A DNA stretch of 64,000 nucleotides from an uncultured virus (IMG/VR IMGVR_UViG_3300020049_001346) (IMGVR_UViG_3300020049_001346); one strand, 5' to 3'; shown: positions 28,527 to 54,062, numbered from the stretch's first letter. The notes: generated by a model from the sequence alone, not told the origin. Program-made: numbers and translations.

Positions 28527-28776
28527 ATCCCTGTATTTTAGGTTCCGATACCTTAACCTCCTCGGTTAGTTTGTCGTTCTCTTGCTCTATCCTGTTCAGT
28601 ATCTGGAAGGCGTCTTCGATTGCAAGCCTTTTGGTAGCTGCTGCGTTCTTTAGCTTGTCTGCAGATAGGTCTGTATCCATACCAGTTATAATCTCGTCCT
28701 CTGCAACCTTTATCAACTCATTCACAGCCTTGTACCCAGCAGCAATGATCTTCTGTTTTATTATGTTGTGGTCCAT
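28504..28776 (-). CDS. Possible terminase small subunit
   Basis: 90-aa helical protein overlapping the terL start; call is positional only. Confidence 0.4.
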   Translation of the reverse strand: MDHNIIKQKIIAAGYKAVNELIKVAEDEIITGMDTDLSADKLKNAAATKRLAIEDAFQILNRIEQENDKLTEEVKVSEPKIQGFAEKRSK

Positions 28777-29333
28777 TTGATTGTAATGTTTTTGGTGGTC
28801 ATCCTGTACAGCTTCTCGTCGTTTATATAGAATGGGTACTCACTATCTGGCTCAAACGAGATCTCATCTCCAATGCTTAGACCAAGGTCTAGCAACTCTT
28901 GATTTATGTAGACAATAGTACCCATCAGTGGTTCCTCCTTGCTGTTCTTGTTTATTGTAGATTCAATCTGCTTAAGCGGCTTGATAAAGCAGTACTTGGA
29001 GTGTGTGTTCCACTCACCGTTCTGGTTGTACATGAAGTACTGCTCGTCGTCTATAAAGAATAGGTCATCCTTAAAGAAGCTGGCTCCGCTCTTCTCCTTA
29101 CCCTTCATGTCGTAGTAGACCTTGAATACGTTGTGGTGAACTAGAAGTATATCGTTAACTTTTACTTTTCCGTCGTAAGTTATAGGTACACTTACAACTT
29201 CTGCAAGCCTGTTAGATACCGTGTGGTCCTCCTTAGACGTGCTGGTTATAAAGTCAACCCCTCCAATCCTCTTTATATTATCGTATCGCCTACCATCTAA
29301 TGGTCGGACGACAAACATATCTGGGGATCTCAT
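28761..29333 (-). CDS. Tandem GroES/Cpn10-like protein
   Basis: Two GroES-like units: FVVRP..AEVVSVP..VKVNDILL and FIKPL..GTIVY..LSIGDEISF. Confidence 0.5.
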   Translation of the reverse strand: MRSPDMFVVRPLDGRRYDNIKRIGGVDFITSTSKEDHTVSNRLAEVVSVPITYDGKVKVNDILLVHHNVFKVYYDMKGKEKSGASFFKDDLFFIDDEQYFMYNQNGEWNTHSKYCFIKPLKQIESTINKNSKEEPLMGTIVYINQELLDLGLSIGDEISFEPDSEYPFYINDEKLYRMTTKNITIKWTTT

Positions 29334-42308: not shown

Positions 42309-42773
42309 ATGAAATACAAGCCATACGCAGACTACCTCAAGTACTGGAGGGCAATAAAGACGCTCATCCGTCACAAGTATAACCTAAGCAGCTCCGACAT
42401 CGATATACTACTTTTCGTCTATAGCGAGGGTTACTTCCGTCACAGACAGTTCTGGGAGTTCGAGTCTGGACTCACCTGGGAGAAGGACCGATTCAAGCGC
42501 ATGATAGCCGACGGGTGGATCACGCTATGGAGGCCGAACAAGAACGGTGAGGCTGCACTGTACGAGGCCTCCTACAAGACACGCAGGGTTATAACAGACA
42601 TATACGAGAAGATCGAGCTCAAGGTTCACGTCTCAGAGAACCCAGTCTCTAACCCAATGTTCAGAACAGACGCCTCCTATACCGAGAGAGCCTCCAGGCC
42701 CATTATTCGTAAGATGAATCGTACGCGTAAGGAGCTTAAGAGGCTCAGGGATATAGAGGATCAGAAGATCTAG
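42309..42773 (+). CDS. Winged-helix-like hypothetical protein, lone plus-strand gene in the late arm
   Basis: YNLSSSDIDILLFVY..RMIADGWI..LYEAS resembles MarR-like wHTH; start MKYKPY at 42309. Confidence 0.5.
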   Translation: MKYKPYADYLKYWRAIKTLIRHKYNLSSSDIDILLFVYSEGYFRHRQFWEFESGLTWEKDRFKRMIADGWITLWRPNKNGEAALYEASYKTRRVITDIYEKIELKVHVSENPVSNPMFRTDASYTERASRPIIRKMNRTRKELKRLRDIEDQKI

Positions 42774-43027
42774 AGGACCACGACTATGTCCCTCTCCAGG
42801 ATTACCGTGTACTTGATGTCGTTTACCAGCATCGTGTATCCAGCGTTCTTGTCGTAGTAGATTATGTCTCCCTCCTTCACGCAGTCCACGTTAGTTCCAG
42901 GCTTCACAACCTCTCCCTTCTTGTACCTGAACTGGTCCGTCTCGTTTCCAGTTAGCAGCAGACCCGACTGTGTCCTCATCTGCTCTTCTATTGTATTGAT
43001 TACTAGGTATTTATTGATTGGTTGCAT
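42770..43027 (-). CDS. groES: Co-chaperonin GroES (Cpn10)
   Basis: MQPINKYLVI..TQSGLLL..GEVVKPG..VKEGD..ILERDIVVV. Confidence 0.85.
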   Translation of the reverse strand: MQPINKYLVINTIEEQMRTQSGLLLTGNETDQFRYKKGEVVKPGTNVDCVKEGDIIYYDKNAGYTMLVNDIKYTVILERDIVVVL

Positions 43028-43028
43028 A

Positions 43029-43355
43029 CTATATTGTTATTGATAATACCTCTCTTATAATCTTTAAGTCTGGATCTATTACATATCCTAGCTCCTTCAT
43101 TGTGGCGGCCTCTAGCGATACACCTTTCTTCTGACAAACCCATACCTCCTGGTCAAACGCAGAGTCTATTATCTCGTAATCTTCATTTCTTGTTACGAAA
43201 AATATCGCAACCTTTACTTGCTTCATTTTGTTTTCTGGTGTTATATACAACCCTGATGTTGTACCTGGTGTTATATACAACCCTGATGTTGTACCTGTTG
43301 TTGTTCCTATTCCGCTATAAAGCGATGATCCGTTGGTGATTGTTGTTACTTCCAT
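43029..43355 (-). CDS. Hypothetical protein with 10-aa tandem duplication
   Basis: GTTSGLYITP twice. Confidence 0.6.
   Translation of the reverse strand: MEVTTITNGSSLYSGIGTTTGTTSGLYITPGTTSGLYITPENKMKQVKVAIFFVTRNEDYEIIDSAFDQEVWVCQKKGVSLEAATMKELGYVIDPDLKIIREVLSITI
43235..43297. repeat. 30-bp perfect tandem repeat (2.1 copies)
   Basis: CTGGTGTTATATACAACCCTGATGTTGTAC at 43235 and 43265. Confidence 0.95.
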
Positions 43356-43588
43356 AATGCTTTTTCGTATGTTAAGTTAAAAATATCTGGTTTGCATGGA
43401 TAAAATTCTCCTTGTACTCCTTTTATTATGAAGTCACCTATTGATGCTTTCATATTACCTTCTAAGGTTTGAATGTATAGCTCCCCATCTATAAATTCAG
43501 CGCTTTTGCAAAAATCTAACATTGGTTCAGTATTTCCATCCCATTGAATTGCTTCAATTACTACTGGTTTCTTTCTGTATAATCCCAT
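43346..43588 (-). CDS. Widespread small phage protein (RKKPVVIEA..TLEG..GEFYPCKPDIF family)
   Basis: Recognisable conserved motifs; function not assigned. Confidence 0.75.
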   Translation of the reverse strand: MGLYRKKPVVIEAIQWDGNTEPMLDFCKSAEFIDGELYIQTLEGNMKASIGDFIIKGVQGEFYPCKPDIFNLTYEKALWK

Positions 43589-45195
43589 TATGCTCGTGTC
43601 ATTGTTATTATTGCGTTAGTACTAAGTATTGTTGTGGCCACACTGACAGCGTTCTTCAGCGCGTTCTTCGTAACCTTCAGCGGGTCTATGATCCCCATGT
43701 CGTACATGTTACCGTACACGTCGTTCTTCACGTCGTAACCAGTGTTAGTGTTTGATGCGCATCCAGTCATGATCTCGTACCCGTCGTTACCTGCGTTCTC
43801 GTGTATCTGCAGCAGAGGTGCCTGAATAGCCCTTGCCATGATCTGCATCGCGACGTACTGCTCTGCACTGATGTCCTCTATCATGTCGTCAGCGTCTACA
43901 ATGATCCTATAGGACTCGTTGAACAGTGCAAGTCCTCCTCCTGGAAGGATTCCCTCCTCCAGTGCAGACCTTACAGCGCATACCGCGTCGTCTACCCTGT
44001 CCTTTCTCTCCTTCTGCTCCAGGTCTGAGTTACCTCCAACGTATATAACAGCGATGCTACCTGTTAAACTAGCGATCCTGCTCTTGATGAACTCCTTGTC
44101 CTGCTTCTTCTGTGCAGCCTCGTGAGCCACCCACAGCTGACTTACCCTGTCGTCTACGTCCTGCTGCTTGCTCTCTGGCTTGATGATGGATGACGAGTCC
44201 CTTCCTATGATGATCCTCTCTGCCCTACCTAAATCCTCGATTGATATCAGGCTAAGGTCGTCTCCTGTGCTCTCCGAGAAGTACTTCGCACCCAAAGACA
44301 GCGCGATGTCTGACATTAGCTCGTTCATCTTGTAACCGAACTCTGGTGGTGCAATGTTACAGAACTTCAGCTTGTTCTTAACCACGTTGACTGCCAGTGT
44401 GTTGATCACGTTCTGGTTGCATGGTCCAATTATGAGTAGCTTCTTGTTCTCCTGTATCACCGTCTTTAGAACCCCCTCTATAGACAAAATGTTGGATATC
44501 TCCTGGTCTGTAACCAGAACTAGCACATCGTCCATGATGCACTCGTCGTTCTTGAAGTCGTTCACGAACATGTTCGAGGTGTAACCCCTTCCGATCTTGA
44601 TTCCGTTTGTGAACTCTGAGTATGTATCCGCTGTCTGCGAGTTCTCGATTGTCACGATCCCATTCTTACCAACCTTCGTGTATGCGTTTGATATGATCTT
44701 ACCTATCTCGTTGTCGTTATTAGCCGATATCGATGCCACGTTGTGAAGCGTCTTACCGCTCACTTTTTTAGAGGATCTCTCCAGGCTGTGGATGATACCG
44801 TTGGAAACGCTGTTGATGTTCTTGATCACCTCCGTCACGTTGTGCTTCTCGTTCAATAGCTCCTGGCCCTGTCTCACGATTGCCTCCGTAAGCACGATTG
44901 CTGTTGTTGTTCCGTCTCCAGCGCTTGTTGCTGTACGATCTGCTGCCTCCTTCATCATCTTAACCGCCAGGTTCTCCACTGGGTCTAGCAAGAAGATTGA
45001 CTTCGCTACCGTTACCCCATCCTTTGTAACTGTGATACCATGTGTGTGGTTCGGTGACTCGATCAGAACCGTACGACCCCTTGGTCCTAGCGTGCTCTTA
45101 ACCGCCTTGGCAATTGTAGTTATGCCTGTAATTAGTTTTGCTCTTCCTTCCTCGTCGAACAGTAGTTCCTTGGGACTGTATCCAAATTCTTCCAT
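43588..45195 (-). CDS. groEL: Chaperonin GroEL (Cpn60)
   Basis: TLGPRGR, VTKDGVTVAK, AGDGTTTA, EEGILPGGG and GIIDPLKV motifs; no GGM tail. Confidence 0.95.
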   Translation of the reverse strand: MEEFGYSPKELLFDEEGRAKLITGITTIAKAVKSTLGPRGRTVLIESPNHTHGITVTKDGVTVAKSIFLLDPVENLAVKMMKEAADRTATSAGDGTTTAIVLTEAIVRQGQELLNEKHNVTEVIKNINSVSNGIIHSLERSSKKVSGKTLHNVASISANNDNEIGKIISNAYTKVGKNGIVTIENSQTADTYSEFTNGIKIGRGYTSNMFVNDFKNDECIMDDVLVLVTDQEISNILSIEGVLKTVIQENKKLLIIGPCNQNVINTLAVNVVKNKLKFCNIAPPEFGYKMNELMSDIALSLGAKYFSESTGDDLSLISIEDLGRAERIIIGRDSSSIIKPESKQQDVDDRVSQLWVAHEAAQKKQDKEFIKSRIASLTGSIAVIYVGGNSDLEQKERKDRVDDAVCAVRSALEEGILPGGGLALFNESYRIIVDADDMIEDISAEQYVAMQIMARAIQAPLLQIHENAGNDGYEIMTGCASNTNTGYDVKNDVYGNMYDMGIIDPLKVTKNALKNAVSVATTILSTNAIITMTRA

Positions 45196-45523: not shown

Positions 45524-45834
45524 CTACTTCTTCTTCTTCATTATGATGTTGTGCATTGGAGCCTTCATCTCCTTTGACATTGCCATGGCGCTAGCCATCA
45601 TCATAGACTCCTCTACAATCTCTTTTCTCTCGTGTAAGGCTTTGGCTTCCTTGGCCATCCTGTACAAGCCAATCTCTTGAACTGGCATCTTCTTGTTTAT
45701 ACCCATCTGAAATGTATACTTATAAATGTTAAATAAATGATCAACTCGTTGTCGTCATAATCTTCGTCTATCGGATAGAATCCCCACCCTATAGATGGAC
45801 CGATGTTGAATCTATTCTGGATCTCAATCTCCAT
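45524..45834 (-). CDS. Two small ORFs opening the late arm (45697-45834; 45524-45706)
   Basis: Overlapping ORFs downstream of -7 box TATCTTTG at 45846-45853. Confidence 0.5.
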
Positions 45835-46140
45835 AATTTTTTTTACAAAGATACAATAATTTTGTTTTAATAATAACGGGGTTAAAAAAATATGTCATAA
45901 ATTTTTAGGCATTACGTTATATAGTCAATCTGCGTGAGCCGTCCAAAATGGAAACCGATTCTTTTTCGAGGGGTGGGGTACCAAAAGCAAGATTTCCCTC
46001 CAGATTTCTAGGCTTTTCCTGGGGTGCCAGGTGGGTACCTCTCCAGACCACACGTCAACTAGGTGGGTATCCCGCCATGTTGCTCCATGCCGTCTGTCTG
46101 TCGCTTGTTTCGTAGAGTAAACCACATAGATAATGCGGTC

Positions 46141-46471
46141 AATGTAGAATAAATGTAAGGAAATGTAAGCCAAATGTAAAGAAAATGCAGGGCTTACATC
46201 GTGTGAGCCGTTGATATCACTACGATTGTCAATGATAATGTAGAAATGCGCGCTCAACCCCTATATACAGCCTATAGATAATTATTATAATATATATATT
46301 TTTTTCGCTACGAAGAAGGGAGTAAAGTTTACATTCTTACATTTTTTAGGCTAAAGTCAATGATACCAAGTGCTACGGCGATGTAAAACTTTTTTGAACT
46401 TTACATTATTTTGGGCAACTTTACATTCTAGGGGCTTCCCGAGGTTTTGCTTACATTTTAGGGGCTTCCTG
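46141..46471. repeat. Iteron-like AATGTA/TACATT repeat array flanking an AT-rich core (candidate replication origin)
   Basis: AATGTA at 46141, 46152, 46162, 46173 and 46237; TACATT at 46330, 46338, 46402, 46422 and 46452; AT-rich 46262-46305. Confidence 0.6.
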
Positions 46472-46727
46472 GAGGGCATGTTAAACCCAGGGAACACCTA
46501 CTGTGTTATGCATAGTACTATTTTGTGTTCAGATACCCTCACACGAGCAATAAACCAAGTCCCCTCACGCGCGTGTACTTATTATTAAAAAATAGAGAAA
46601 TCTCGTAACTTGCACGTTATCAATCAATTAGTATATTTGTTAAAATTCCACACCTTGTCAGCCCAATAAAACCGAGCCAAATGTTAAATATTTGTTAATT
46701 AATTAGGATTGTAATTGATAGTTGTCG

Positions 46728-46735
46728 TATGTTTG
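46728..46735 (+). promoter_or_regulatory. Early promoter -7 box (TATGTTTG)
   Basis: TAnnTTTG followed by CA at the head of the plus-strand arm; a second box TATATTTG lies at 46632-46639. Confidence 0.6.
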
Positions 46736-46879
46736 CAGTGTTGAAAGGGTAGAAAATTTGTAAAGACCCTAGATGCAAGTCGACAAGACTATAACTGCGG
46801 GTAAGTCTACTCAGGAATAAGCGATATAGATTTCGTGAAGTCCGAAGACCATGGGGGTATCCAAATAGGAACGAGCATG

Positions 46880-46934
46880 AAACGTACATGGATGTGTTAT
46901 CCATGCTGATGAGCCACAGAATGGCGAAACGTTT
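46880..46934 (+). ncRNA. Hammerhead ribozyme, type III (HH1)
   Basis: Stem III AAACGT/ACGTTT, GUA site (cut after 46886), stem I CATGGAT/ATCCATG, CTGATGA 46906-46912, stem II GCCA/TGGC, GAAA 46926-46929. Confidence 0.9.
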
Positions 46935-46947
46935 AATACTATTTATT

Positions 46948-47139
46948 ATGAAATTATTTACATTAAGACTGTCGCATCCTAATTATCAAAATGAAGTAAT
47001 AATCCTTTTTAGAAAGAAGGAGGATGCAATCGCAGAGTTTGAGCACAAAGCCAATCAATTGAAACTAAAAAAGGTGGCATATGACTTTGCTTACCTAGAC
47101 AACATAGAATTGTCTATCATAGAAAAACAGGTTAACTGA
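46948..47139 (+). CDS. First early small ORF (63 aa)
   Basis: ATG 13 nt after HH1; its TGA stop lies within the HH2 core. Confidence 0.6.
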   Translation: MKLFTLRLSHPNYQNEVIILFRKKEDAIAEFEHKANQLKLKKVAYDFAYLDNIELSIIEKQVN

Positions 47140-47179
47140 TGAGGTCTAAGTGACCGAAACGTCGTGAGACGTCTTAACC
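47130..47179 (+). ncRNA. Hammerhead ribozyme, type I (HH2)
   Basis: Stem I GGTTAA/TTAACC, CTGATGA 47136-47142, stem II GGTC/GACC, GAAA, stem III ACGTC/GACGT, GUC site (cut after 47173). Confidence 0.93.
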
Positions 47180-47196
47180 AATTAAATATATTTAAC

Positions 47197-47491
47197 ATGA
47201 AAAAGAACATCCTATTTTGGGTATTGGTAGCGGTGCTATCAATCACAATTCATTTACTAACTCCTAACTGCTACAGATAATGGGACAGAACTTAAAAGAC
47301 ATCGGACTTGCCCTAGTACTATGGGCAGTATTTATAACTTTAATATCTATTATATGAACAAAGAAATCTTATATAGTCTAGAAGGCTATCCAATTAACCC
47401 TAAACTATACGGTCATTGGAACAAGTTAACACAGAGCGAAAAGAATAACTTGTATGCAAGGTACGTATTTCTATGCGAACAAGAGAGGTAG
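47197..47491 (+). CDS. Three coupled micro-ORFs (47197-47280, 27 aa; 47280-47357, 25 aa; 47354-47491, 45 aa)
   Basis: TAATG and ATGA overlaps; first two are single hydrophobic helices; they fill the gap between HH2 and HH3 exactly. Confidence 0.6.
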
Positions 47492-47543
47492 GTTAACTGA
47501 CGAGTCCTGATTGGACGAAACACCCCAAGTGGGTGTCTTAACC
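47491..47543 (+). ncRNA. Hammerhead ribozyme, type I (HH3)
   Basis: Stem I GGTTAA/TTAACC, CTGACGA 47497-47503, stem II GTCC/GGAC, GAAA, stem III ACACCC/GGGTGT, GUC site (cut after 47537). Confidence 0.93.
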
Positions 47544-47559
47544 ATTAAATATATTTAAC

Positions 47560-49609
47560 ATGAAAGATTCATTAGCTTTATTATCCACCATAGACGTGGA
47601 AAGATTTTATGTGTGCTCGGTTTGGGAGCGAGAGGTAACCTTGCAAGGCAAGGCAAGTACAGAACTTATACAATACTGCAAAGGATTAGGTGTTGATGAA
47701 TTTCAAGTGAGTGACCTTGGTCATTTAAAGGCGGAGATTGGTAAACTTAAAATAGTACTAGCGTAATGAAAAAGTCAATCTATCAGCACATCGCTGACAC
47801 GTACAAGGACGAGGTTCCAACATTGGAACAAGTGACCGCATTAATTAAGGAGCATGCTCCAAACATATCGTCGCCGAGTTTAACCTTCGACGAATTAGTA
47901 ACTAACATTTACGAAAACTATACATCATGGATAAAATAGAACAAGCGAAGGCTATACTTAAGGAAGCGGGTTACTACACGGGTAACCTATGGCACATCAA
48001 CGATGTAAAAGAAGACTACGACATTACTGACGATGAGGCACATGATGTGTTATCAAAGGCACTAAACAACGAGGGAACATTTGACCAAATATGGACAGCT
48101 ATTAAATTTTATGCAGATGATACTACAGAAATATAGACGGCAGTTAGGTCATGACTCAATCACGTTGGCACACGGAAGTAAACCCTTCTTTGTGCCATCG
48201 TCATTTGAGCACAAGGATGTGAGTCCTGAACTAGTGGCGATTGAGTTCCCACAGTGGTTCCTAGACAAGCACAAGCAGACCATAGAAGAGATAGAGTTCA
48301 GTACTAACTTATTAATAGAGAGAATATGCGACCAAGGATAACACTAGTTAATCAGACCATCAGGTCAATCAGGGAGCGTGAGCAGAAGTTCACGGCGCTT
48401 GTAAAGTACGAGTGCAAAGAGAACCCACAACTGAAGTGGCACGAAGCCAAGCGAGAGGTAAAGTACAGAATTTTTAATAAGACAATAGGATGGATACAGC
48501 AATAGTAGTTGAGACGGGAGAGAGTGTAGAGATAGTGCACAGAGGTTTTGATATTGTAATAATACAATTCAGTGACGGGACACAGAAACTTGTGAGACCC
48601 GATGAGGTTGGACTAACTAAAAGAAAGAGACCAAAGTTATGGAAGCTATACTAGAGAGAGCCTTCGTGAAGGCGATGGTCAAGGTGATGAGCCTTGAGGA
48701 CGAGTTGAAAGACATTGACAAGGCTATGTATGACGATCACCACCTTGAAATAATCAGGACAAGTATAGAGCGCGACCTAGAGGCGTGGAAATTAATCTTA
48801 AAACTAATTGAGAATGAAAGCAAAGGTAATAGTAAGTAGGGGTGCATATAGCATCGGTCACGATTGGTGTCTAGTCCTAGAGACAAAGAAGCACCACCAA
48901 CGATTCTATTTGGGTCAAGATAACAAGTTCTGTACTAGGGTATTAGGTCTAAGCACATCAGATGTTGTCGCTAGGATAGGCACCCGAGAGATAGACAACG
49001 ACACGAAGGGCAACCGCATATTGGCCAAGTTCATATGCAAACAACTAAACATTAACGGACACAACTTCAAGTGCATCGAGGCGTGGGGTCTGTGTGCACA
49101 ATAACTAAAGACATGACACATTTTAAATCAGACGAGTTAGAGTTCTTCAACAAGTTCACAGACAAGCGGGTTAATGTAGGAGATGGCACTACGACCATAA
49201 GAGTCAAGCCAAAGGAGACACAGCTAGACCTACAGATTGAGGTGGCTAGGAAGACGAGTATTAACATAGTAACGTGTGGAGACTGCGGTAGCACACTACT
49301 ACACAGACAATCGGACGAGACCATAACGTGTCCTGACTGTGGATTTAGTAGTGAGCCTTGCGACTTCCCTAACTTAAACTACTAGAAATGAAAGAAGAGT
49401 ATATCAGAATGCGTAACAGTGGGCAGTATAACATAGAGTGGTTCCACAAGTATTACAGAAGCAAGGGGGGTAGAGACATCCCCCTTCAGGACTTCCACAT
49501 GGTGTTTCAGACGGCTAACCTAGATCAGGTTTTAGATAGAATAGATAAAGAGTATAACCTTACATCATTATATGATGTAAATAATAAACTAATAAAGACA
49601 TGGCAATAA
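47560..49609 (+). CDS. Run of small early hypothetical ORFs (including 47560-47766, 47927-48136, 48639-48839, ~48814-49104, ~49113-49385 Zn-ribbon, 49388-49609)
   Basis: Tightly packed, coupled ORFs; CGDC..CPDC in the ORF ending at 49385. Confidence 0.6.
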
Positions 49610-49902
49610 AGATAACAGACGACTGCATCAACTGTGGACTGTGTGAGCCCGTGTGTCCGAACAACGCGATATACGAGCCTGACACGGATTGGAGATGGAG
49701 CGACGGCACAAGCCTGACGGATGATACACCACAGGCACCACGTTCAAGCGACGTGTTCTACATCGTTGAGGAGAAGTGCACAGAGTGTGTCGGCTTCTAC
49801 GGTGCACCACAGTGTGCGTCAGTGTGCCCATCGGACTGTTGTGTCCCTAGCACACACGAGACAGATTTACTAACTAAAAAGCATAGACTACATGGAAATT
49901 AA
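49600..49902 (+). CDS. 2x[4Fe-4S] ferredoxin (YfhL-like)
   Basis: CINCGLCEPVCP and CTECVG..PQCASVCP cluster motifs. Confidence 0.9.
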   Translation: MAIKITDDCINCGLCEPVCPNNAIYEPDTDWRWSDGTSLTDDTPQAPRSSDVFYIVEEKCTECVGFYGAPQCASVCPSDCCVPSTHETDLLTKKHRLHGN

Positions 49903-50539: not shown

Positions 50540-50611
50540 AGTCAGGTGGCAGTAATTGGTAACTGCGAAGCATTATGCATAGAAATACAGGTTCGAATCC
50601 TGTCCTGACTA
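50540..50611 (+). tRNA. tRNA-like RNA with degenerate anticodon arm
   Basis: Acceptor AGTCAGG/CCTGACT, D arm GCAG-TAATTGGTAA-CTGC, T arm ACAGG-TTCGAAT-CCTGT; no canonical anticodon stem-loop. Confidence 0.65.
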
Positions 50612-51931: not shown

Positions 51932-52037
51932 TATCTTTGCAATGTAATGAAGTGAGACACATTGCGCCCGAAAATATTTAATAATCCTGTCAAGGAGGCA
52001 TGTCTCACATTACTGCCAAATTGATGGGGTTTTTTTT
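51932..52037 (+). promoter_or_regulatory. Promoter plus structured leader/attenuator upstream of HNH gene
   Basis: TATCTTTG box, two hairpins with complementary loops, terminal T run. Confidence 0.55.
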
Positions 52038-52667: not shown

Positions 52668-53240
52668 ATGGAGAAAATTTTTAAAACATTATCAGAGATT
52701 GACATAAAGTCAAAAGTAGAGAAGAAGGGTAGTCAGAACTACCTCAGTTGGGCTAACGCGTGGGGGTTTGCAAAGCAAATGTATCCATCAATACAACGTA
52801 TAGTGTACGAGGATCCGTTGACGGGACTTAACTACCTAAACGATGGTAAGACGGGCTATGTGAAGGTTGGAATTGTAATCGAGGGACTAGAGCACATCGA
52901 CTACCTACCAATCATGAGCCACAACAACAAGTCAATTGGAATAGATAACATAACATCATTCGAGGTGTCAAAGACTATCCAAAGGAGCACTGTAAAGGCG
53001 TTGGCGCTTCACGGACTAGGCCTTCAGATGTGGAGTGGTGAAGACCTAGTGACAACTACAAAGGTAGAGAAGCCTTCAGGCCCTCTAGAGTTGACCATAG
53101 GTGACGCGAATTGGGACAAGGTCATCAAGTACATCAAGGACAACAAGCACCTTGGATTGGCCACGATAGTCAAGAACCTTGAGACGAAGTATAAAATTTC
53201 AACCGTAATCAAAAAAGAACTTGGGAAATATGTTGGATAG
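52668..53240 (+). CDS. Single-strand annealing protein (Sak3/DUF1071-like)
   Basis: VEKKG..YLSWANAW..LPIM..N..IQRSTVKALALHGLGL. Confidence 0.8.
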   Translation: MEKIFKTLSEIDIKSKVEKKGSQNYLSWANAWGFAKQMYPSIQRIVYEDPLTGLNYLNDGKTGYVKVGIVIEGLEHIDYLPIMSHNNKSIGIDNITSFEVSKTIQRSTVKALALHGLGLQMWSGEDLVTTTKVEKPSGPLELTIGDANWDKVIKYIKDNKHLGLATIVKNLETKYKISTVIKKELGKYVG

Positions 53241-53943
53241 ACTAAGAAATGACAAAGACTACTACGGGGACTACGGATCGCAGTTCCTAAGTAATAGCGC
53301 GGTGGGTGTACTATTAAGTAACCCTAAGATGTTTAAGGTAAAGCAGGAGCCGACGGTTCCTATGCTACAAGGTAGCTACTTCCACACGGCCATATTGGAG
53401 CCTGAGAAGTTGGCCAACTTTGAGATAGTGGAGGCGAGCACGCGTAACACAAACATATACAAGGACGCGTCAAAGGGCAACCTGCTCCTGCTAAGGAATG
53501 AGTGTGACAACCTTGACGAGATGGTTCGCGTGATCAAGTCGAACTTCTTCTTTTACGAGAACATCTACAAGGACGGAAACGTGTACGAGGAGCCCGCCAT
53601 CATGGAGTTGTTCGGCCACAAGTTCAAGGGCAAGGCAGACATTGTGACAGACGAGATTATTATCGACATCAAGACCACGTCAAAGATCTCTGACTTCAGG
53701 TGGTCTGCAAAGAAGTACAACTACGACTCGCAGTCATATTTGTATCAGCAATTTTTTGATAAACCCTTGATTTTCTACGTAATAGATAAGGGTACTCACG
53801 AGTTGGGTGTGTTCGAGCCTAGTGCAGAGTTCCTACTAGGAGGTAGAGAGAAGGTGTTGCGTGCGGTTGAGGTCTACGAAAAGTTCTTTGGAGACAGTCC
53901 TAAGGAGGACATAAATAATTTCTTCATAAGGGAAGATTTGTAA
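53230..53943 (+). CDS. PD-(D/E)XK exonuclease (RecE/exonuclease VIII-like)
   Basis: LSNS, GSYFHTAILEP, KGKAD..IIDIKTT and Y.YDSQ..Y motifs; adjacent to SSAP. Confidence 0.8.
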   Translation: MLDRLRNDKDYYGDYGSQFLSNSAVGVLLSNPKMFKVKQEPTVPMLQGSYFHTAILEPEKLANFEIVEASTRNTNIYKDASKGNLLLLRNECDNLDEMVRVIKSNFFFYENIYKDGNVYEEPAIMELFGHKFKGKADIVTDEIIIDIKTTSKISDFRWSAKKYNYDSQSYLYQQFFDKPLIFYVIDKGTHELGVFEPSAEFLLGGREKVLRAVEVYEKFFGDSPKEDINNFFIREDL

Positions 53944-53990: not shown

Positions 53991-54062
53991 TGTTGTATAG
54001 TTTAGCGGTAGAATAGGCCTTGTTTAATAGGCTAGACGAGGGTTCGAGTCCCTCTGCAACAT
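53991..54062 (+). tRNA. tRNA-like gene with 8-nt anticodon loop (TGTTTAAT)
   Basis: Acceptor TGTTGTA/TGCAACA, D arm GTTT-AGCGGTA-GAAT, anticodon stem GGCCT/AGGCT, T arm GAGGG-TTCGAGT-CCCTC; -7 box TATATTTG at 53955-53962. Confidence 0.7.

Follow-up and report, generated by a model that had tools for sequence, protein, structure and literature searches.

Compact type I hammerhead ribozymes between the early genes of an Elemovirus-related phage and their probable role in mRNA processing

Two type I hammerheads, HH2 and HH3, lie among the small early genes of an uncultured phage (IMG/VR IMGVR_UViG_3300020049_001346). Judged by their sequence they are genuine hammerheads under selection, with self-cleavage predicted, and they probably serve as mRNA punctuation, processing an early polycistronic transcript and insulating the genes that it carries. 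They belong to a widespread phage family of which the scans revealed at least 520 distinct copies. The whole 64,000-nucleotide stretch of DNA that was analysed is referred to here as the window.

Most of a phage genome lies in the window; its structural genes are encoded on the minus strand, and an arm running rightward begins at about 46.7 kb. The terminase is 72% identical to that of an uncultured podovirus and 45% identical to the terminases of Flavobacterium elemo phages; all 87 terminase matches with a named genus are records of Flavobacteriaceae phages. By these homologies the virus is an Elemovirus-related phage of Flavobacterium-like bacteria. The relative L161 is identical to the window, as is G001 over 45800–49000, which does not count as independent evidence. 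The window also specifies GroEL (43588–45195, minus strand), as do the elemo phages, a GroES-like ORF judged by eye (42770–43027, minus strand) and a second GroES-like family match (28761–29333, minus strand). Two tRNA genes are present (50540–50611 and 53991–54062, for the second of which the Rfam alignment shows an anticodon loop of 8 nt), and a perfect 30-nt tandem duplication (43235–43294) lies within ORF 43029–43355. A 4Fe-4S dicluster ferredoxin (family F4, kept in 9 of 21 relatives) is encoded at 49600–49902. The features of the early region and of the recombination genes downstream are as follows.

46728–46735, plus strand: putative Bacteroidota-type promoter -7 element TAnnTTTG, the final plus-strand instance before 51932
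46740–46879, plus strand: non-coding leader from promoter to HH1, start approximate; mosaic among relatives
46880–46934, plus strand: HH1, type III hammerhead, core 46906; predicted cut after A46886
46951–47139, plus strand: ORF A, 62 aa; occupies the hypervariable first slot and stops at the TGA within the HH2 core
47129–47180, plus strand: HH2, type I hammerhead; predicted cut after C47173; loop II UAAGU
47174–47196, plus strand: G-free leader after the predicted HH2 cut, 23 nt; ATG at 47197
47197–47280, plus strand: ORF B1, 27 aa, hydrophobic; family F11, in 7 of 21 relatives
47280–47357, plus strand: ORF B2, 25 aa, hydrophobic; family F2; start overlaps the B1 stop
47354–47491, plus strand: ORF B3, 45 aa; family F17; the G of its TAG stop is the first base of HH3 stem I
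47490–47544, plus strand: HH3, type I hammerhead; predicted cut after C47537; loop II UGAUU
47538–47559, plus strand: G-free leader after the predicted HH3 cut, 22 nt; ATG at 47560
47560–47766, plus strand: ORF C1, 68 aa; follows the HH3 leader
52668–53240, plus strand: Sak single-strand annealing protein, profile match (Pfam/PHROG)
53221–53943, plus strand: DUF3799/exonuclease VIII-like gene, profile match (Pfam/PHROG)

In HH2, the unpaired bases A2.7 (47129) and A1.7 (47180) border stem I (GGTTAA, 47130–47135, paired with TTAACC, 47174–47179), and the core CTGATGA (47136–47142) is followed by stem II (47143–47155), GAAA and stem III (47160–47172). HH3 possesses A2.7 at 47490, A1.7 at 47544, stem I at 47491–47496 and 47538–47543, and the core CTGACGA at 47497–47503. 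Both contain the features of a type I hammerhead core (CUGANGA, GAAA and an NUH cleavage triplet) and both fold as three-way junctions with stems II and III closed and stem I open, stem I being weak (-4.1 kcal/mol for the duplex). A descriptor scan of both strands of the whole window revealed three strong hammerheads (cores 46906, 47136 and 47497), all within 0.7 kb, and one weak minus-strand match, while a strong hammerhead occurred in none of 30 simulated windows of matching composition. The window ribozymes gave nothing at the Rfam gathering level. HH3 scored 27.5 bits against RF00163 (threshold 34; best relative 31.9) and 21.3 bits against RF03152 RAGATH-1 (threshold 56.3; relatives up to 29), and HH2 was absent from the RF00163 matches up to E=5.

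The sequence-only reading had placed HH2 and HH3 here, with cuts leaving near-identical AU-rich leaders of 23 and 22 nt before the ATGs at 47197 and 47560 and with upstream stops built into the ribozymes (TGA in the HH2 core, TAG on the first G of HH3 stem I); all of these coordinates hold. Both cassettes do stand before ATGs, as it proposed, but three ORFs (27, 25 and 45 aa) rather than one lie between HH2 and HH3, so that the predicted inter-cassette piece of 364 nt carries three overlapping micro-ORFs. Nine early ORFs gave no Pfam or PHROG match except one weak match to an unknown family, ORF A having none, and the Atlas matches of the small early ORFs were all under 0.9.

The word TAnnTTTG, which we take to be the Bacteroidota promoter consensus, occurs on the plus strand at 46632 and 46728 and next at 51932. 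Since it is absent from the plus strand between 46736 and 51931, and so from the cassettes, HH1, HH2, HH3 and the small ORFs most simply belong to one transcript. The TTTGCAGTGTT stretch at the putative promoter is kept in most of 15 aligned relatives. The leader at 46740–46879, without an Rfam match, would be released as a small RNA by the predicted HH1 cut. Its counterparts in L147, L156, L160, L167, L170, L178, L185 and L186 fall into several unrelated, block-swapped versions, one of which starts with a hairpin that may resemble hatchet ribozymes; no other ribozyme class was found upstream of HH1 in eight relatives. Counterparts of HH1 in relatives reach 45.1 bits on RF00008. Stem-loop I of HH1 is also found in L157 and L165, records of 366 and 377 nt, which resemble small satellite RNAs in size and layout.

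The family was defined by three scans. With stem I fixed as GGTTAA/TTAACC, the first pattern matched at least 136 stretches in viral contigs and at least 138 in metagenome contigs. In 185,579 prokaryote genomes it matched 4 times, each time on a MAG contig of 0.9–10 kb; HH2 as a query against the named phage collection gave just short AT-rich chance matches. The second scan let stem I vary and required a U-N-R-N-U loop II; of its 139 cores, 130 closed as type I. GGUUAA/UUAACC was present in merely 19 of these 130 copies, all six pair positions varied as pairs with the length staying at 6 bp, the closing pair was G2.6-C1.6 in 123 of the 130, and A1.7 faced A2.7 in 128 of 129. That stem I covaries freely yet stays 6 bp long argues for selection on RNA structure, not on DNA sequence. 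The sequence AGGTTAAC...TTAACCA, considered as a fixed protein or DNA site, proved to be an artefact of the first pattern, and the earlier claim that AGGTTAAC and TTAACCA form a fixed cassette sequence fell with it. What does recur, at hundreds of phage loci in the viral and metagenome contigs searched, is the module of stop, ribozyme and initiation region. The predicted cut site formed a contig end in 0 of the 166 metagenome matches listed, assemblies being unreliable evidence here.

In a third scan the last base of loop II was set to A. Among the matches listed over the scans, 338 distinct copies, which are related and not independent, have a plain 4-bp stem II; U as the last base of loop II is accompanied by A1.7 in 238 of 238 of them, and A at that position by U1.7 in 89 of 94. 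In the copies from scans fixing neither base (n=148), the figures are 132 of 132 for U-A and 8 of 10 for A-U. This covariation holds after collapse to 183 types, the switch is seen in 8 of the 10 stem I families having more than one loop ending, and position 1.8 shows no covariation with the loop II ending. Within the same 338 listed copies the cleavage triplet is GUC in 306, and 237 combine loop U, A1.7, U at the first loop position and A2.7. From the covariation we infer that the last base of loop II and nucleotide 1.7 form a docking pair of predicted geometry, and the flanking A's of the cassettes, by the same sequence comparison, are best read as part of the docking motif. PMC11875169 describes, after O'Rourke et al., an AL2.4:U1.7 Hoogsteen contact in high-activity hammerheads. 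This contact is the A-U form of the family's covariation (89 of the 94 loop-A copies), whereas the copies in the window carry the reversed pair (loop U, A1.7). The reversed form was not found described in the literature searched, which did not include de la Pena 2010 or Jimenez 2011.

Cultured phages are among the carriers. Flavobacterium phage elemoA_7-9A (NC_055852) possesses an HH1-like type III hammerhead and a type I copy with loop UUAAU and A1.7/A2.7, and Cellulophaga phage phi18:3 (NC_021794) a loop-A/U1.7 copy; MW202828 gave no match in the half examined. The type I stem II of elemoF_6-3D (L601:2687) is a chimera of two sister-isolate alleles with two mismatches, probably a weakened natural variant in a cultured phage.

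For the comparison of leaders and gene order, 21 relatives were selected from 54 loci for having A/U leaders and a type III ribozyme like HH1, the other 33 being dropped for other contexts or duplication. Of the 24 distinct cassette leaders of these relatives, 24 have A at -3 and 92% have A at -13, and G makes up 0.6% of their bases; for 168 other starts in the same relatives the corresponding figures are 71%, 65% and 9%. A at these positions raises initiation in F. johnsoniae, according to PMC6847099. Family-wide, the ATG lies 18–26 nt past the predicted cut in 114 of 145 distinct copies, and a near ATG is missing in 23 of 520, both among the matches listed. In the window the HH2 and HH3 leaders share 22 identical nt running into the start codon (repeat D19), and an earlier suggestion had made this shared leader a special feature. 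That idea was rejected: leaders in the relatives measure 19–26 nt and differ between copies, and the same genes also occur ribozyme-free behind a similar AU-rich leader. The 22-nt identity is particular to the window genome and, from its distribution, is local homogenisation. Words resembling Shine-Dalgarno (SD) sites are found in the leaders of 103 of 194 copies with other stems and of 20 of 303 GGTTAA copies among the matches listed, which indicates that the leader follows the host. Because leaders vary, occur without a ribozyme and carry SD words according to stem class, the cassette leader is, on sequence criteria, a strong but generic Bacteroidota initiation region. In L035, L036 and L100 the cassette leaders are 44–49 nt long, and the stretch from the predicted cut to the start codon includes a further conserved block that resembles a hairpin (GGTGCAG..CTATAACAGGCAC).

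At the upstream side, 22 of 31 stops in the 21 relatives overlap the ribozyme, 5 lie within 7 nt and 4 are far off, probably owing to missed ORFs. Among the listed matches with enough flank the stop overlaps the ribozyme in 222 of 417 copies and is at most 10 nt away in 112, with 41 further away and 42 without an ORF call. The motif itself contains TAA, TGA and, after T, TAG. Since the motif bears stops and phage genes are tightly packed, the overlap needs no regulatory purpose; it probably follows from these two properties. A ribosome terminating at the overlap would briefly open stem I and the core.

Cleavage by a hammerhead leaves a cyclic phosphate on the upstream product and a 5'-OH on the downstream one. 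In the processing role that we favour, transcription would start near 46740, as the promoter-like sites suggest, and run through HH1, HH2 and HH3. Each ribozyme would fold with its loop II/1.7 docking pair, as covariation indicates, and would then cut itself, as predicted from the conservation of the family and the intact core. Given the type I topology, stems II and III would stay on the upstream piece as hairpins at its 3' end, terminated by the cyclic phosphate; the downstream piece would begin with a 5'-OH and a 22–23 nt unstructured A/U leader, optimal as an initiation region in Bacteroidota. For a gene behind the cassette, expression and decay may thus become independent of what lies upstream, which suits a region of fast gene turnover. 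The short conserved blocks of the cassette, as comparison of the copies shows, double as crossover sites. This role accords with the intact cores and folds (0 of 30 controls), with cassette leaders richer in positive initiation determinants than other starts, and with the covariation of stem I and docking pair, the ATG spacing and the missing internal promoter match; in addition, tandem phage hammerheads cleave in vitro and in E. coli (PMC3088659). Against it stand the optional presence of the ribozyme at the same junctions and before the same genes, the elemoF isolate with its two stem II mismatches, a stem I weak enough to be opened by ribosomes, and the Rfam scores under threshold.

A second explanation sees the main reason for keeping the cassette in DNA recombination: it would be an anchor, the ribozyme counterpart of the T4 PeSL, that steers gene gain and loss to safe places and provides incoming genes with stop and start signals. 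The gene content between cassettes does vary while the cassette is conserved, as had been anticipated: the first gene slot is occupied by 16 different families among 21 relatives. Crossovers also leave their mark within the cassette. At the HH3 site, the 70-nt flanks of the window, L147 and L156 are 99–100% identical, with stem III just 35–56% alike and stem II 54–62% alike in the comparison with L147. Among pairs homologous on both flanks stem II differs in 5 of 5 and stem III in 4 of 5, one stem II allele is paired with six stem III alleles, and 19 pairs of copies are homologous on one flank only (5 upstream, 14 downstream). In L193 just the 5' ribozyme arm is left as a scar after the stop of a family F22 gene, a loss consistent with deletion between short TTAAC repeats, and in L149 slot A has been lost between HH1 and a cassette-type leader. 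These stem exchanges and losses, the upstream genes ending within the ribozyme in more than half of the listed copies and the PeSL precedent (PMC2839356) all speak for an anchor, as does the presence of Sak and an exonuclease in the phage. The Sak and DUF3799 proteins are plausible candidate machinery for short-homology exchange at the cassettes.

By such exchange patterns, crossovers do fall in the cassette, and helices, leaders and neighbouring genes reassort. A preference for the cassette is another matter. Neighbours are kept at 0.29–0.35 of ribozyme junctions and at 0.38–0.46 of others, so that ribozyme junctions are broken only slightly more often (27 ribozyme and 100 other front-region junctions; permutation p=0.054 with home-made ORF calls). 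In five near-identical cultured elemo phages (of 68 records) all gene swaps fall at ribozyme-free junctions, the stretch compared holding just two unlike ribozymes. The free covariation of the stems and that of the tertiary contact, moreover, erode DNA homology and indicate selection on RNA. Since ribozyme-free junctions break nearly as often, recombination at the cassettes looks like a real but secondary side effect, with the main route of gene exchange lying elsewhere. Of the recombination anchor proposed by the sequence-only reading, the crossovers within the cassette (stem II/III swaps and the L193 scar) stand, and the preference is not supported beyond a weak trend; as the main reason for keeping the cassette, an anchor is rather unlikely.

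It is also conceivable, at a still lower probability, that the inter-cassette piece closes into a circle or joins other pieces by ligation. The 364-nt piece would begin with UUAACC (5'-OH) and end with the whole HH3 body (cyclic phosphate), so that it could re-form a complete ribozyme on itself, and PMC6155905 reports that tertiary-stabilised hammerheads ligate much faster than minimal ones. Among the matches listed, the arms are compatible in 96 of 114 adjacent pairs, and adjacent pairs share an identical stem I 5' arm in 90 cases, stem II in 15 and stem III in 8. But 18 of the 114 have 1–3 mismatches, including the close relatives L015, L172 and L181; 72 are GGTTAA-GGTTAA pairs, partly because the search had fixed stem I; and slower change of stem I is expected anyway because its arms lie far apart. 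The weak stem I favours release, and Perreault et al. (PMC3088659) searched other phage clusters for spliced or circular products and found none. The 25 + 15 larger proteins scanned (outside the early run, those of at least 130 aa) included neither a reverse transcriptase nor an RNA ligase. Circularisation is compatible with the sequence but not required. A combined scheme, in which interchangeable stem I arms allow ligation into circular or re-joined early mRNAs while the cassettes act as DNA crossover points feeding the slots, appears equally improbable.

Just as doubtful is the notion of near-neutral or selfish passengers, spread by short-homology recombination and tolerated because they cut outside coding sequence, or of elements that speed early mRNA decay: gain or loss with flanking genes unchanged at constant junctions (F2-F3, F21-F10), the same genes being seen with or without a ribozyme upstream, and the mismatched stem II of a cultured isolate would fit it, but core, helix length and tertiary pair are near-absolutely conserved over hundreds of copies, the ribozymes are confined to the early run of the window, cassette leaders are stronger than average, and 4 matches in 185,579 prokaryote genomes, on short MAG contigs, are unlike a freely spreading element.

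The processing and insulating role has precedents. Clusters of hammerheads flanking non-constant genes were described in prophages in 2011, with cleavage in vitro and in E. coli and an mRNA-processing hypothesis (PMC3088659). Shared with the window are the several hammerheads of mixed type in one run, the small non-conserved ORFs of inconstant identity that they flank and the proposed gene-length mRNAs. The present class differs in being compact, with no pseudoknot, a 6-bp stem I, a G-C closing pair, an A.A juxtaposition and a U-ended pentaloop, in occurring on free phage contigs but scarcely in the genomes of hosts, and in its measured helix exchange. No such stem I was found in 11 supplement files of PMC3088659, where gapped alignments or a twelfth file could hide one, and no paper on a compact class in Bacteroidota phages was found in the mostly open-access literature searched. 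With RF00163 and RF03152 the window copies share topology, the CUGANGA and GAAA core and the NUH triplet; they differ in their sub-threshold scores, a long stem III and no match to the RAGATH-1 upstream hairpin. Synthetic insulators such as RiboJ place a self-cleaving RNA before the initiation region, stripping upstream context and giving a defined 5'-OH end. The window cassettes, in contrast, are natural, of hammerhead type I and without a 5' hairpin on the predicted product. The PeSL cassettes of T4-type phages, a precedent for cassette-mediated gene shuffling (Arbiol et al. 2010, PMC2839356), are likewise repeated intergenic units that reach from the stop of the upstream gene to the start of the downstream one, lie in hyperplastic regions and show internal crossovers and chimeric copies. 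They are promoter-terminator-SD units, whereas the window cassettes are ribozymes without a promoter match and with a weak crossover preference. In fungal RNA viruses, type I hammerheads that precede ORFs offer a distant parallel (PMC13725137). Phage hammerhead clusters are known; the compact version described here is widespread, shows swapping of internal parts between copies and is present in a cultured phage.

The function that self-cleaving ribozymes serve in bacteria and phages, called unresolved in two reviews (PMC6765202, PMC6155905), is the open question addressed here. A large, cleanly defined class of compact hammerheads escapes current Rfam thresholds, and its reversed docking pair is testable by a two-base swap. 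The comparison gives direct evidence that parts of the ribozyme and neighbouring genes reassort. ElemoA provides a cultured system for the class, with natural stem II variants among the elemo isolates, and a 50-nt ribozyme whose predicted cleavage leaves a bare, strong leader would suit Bacteroidota engineering as an insulator.
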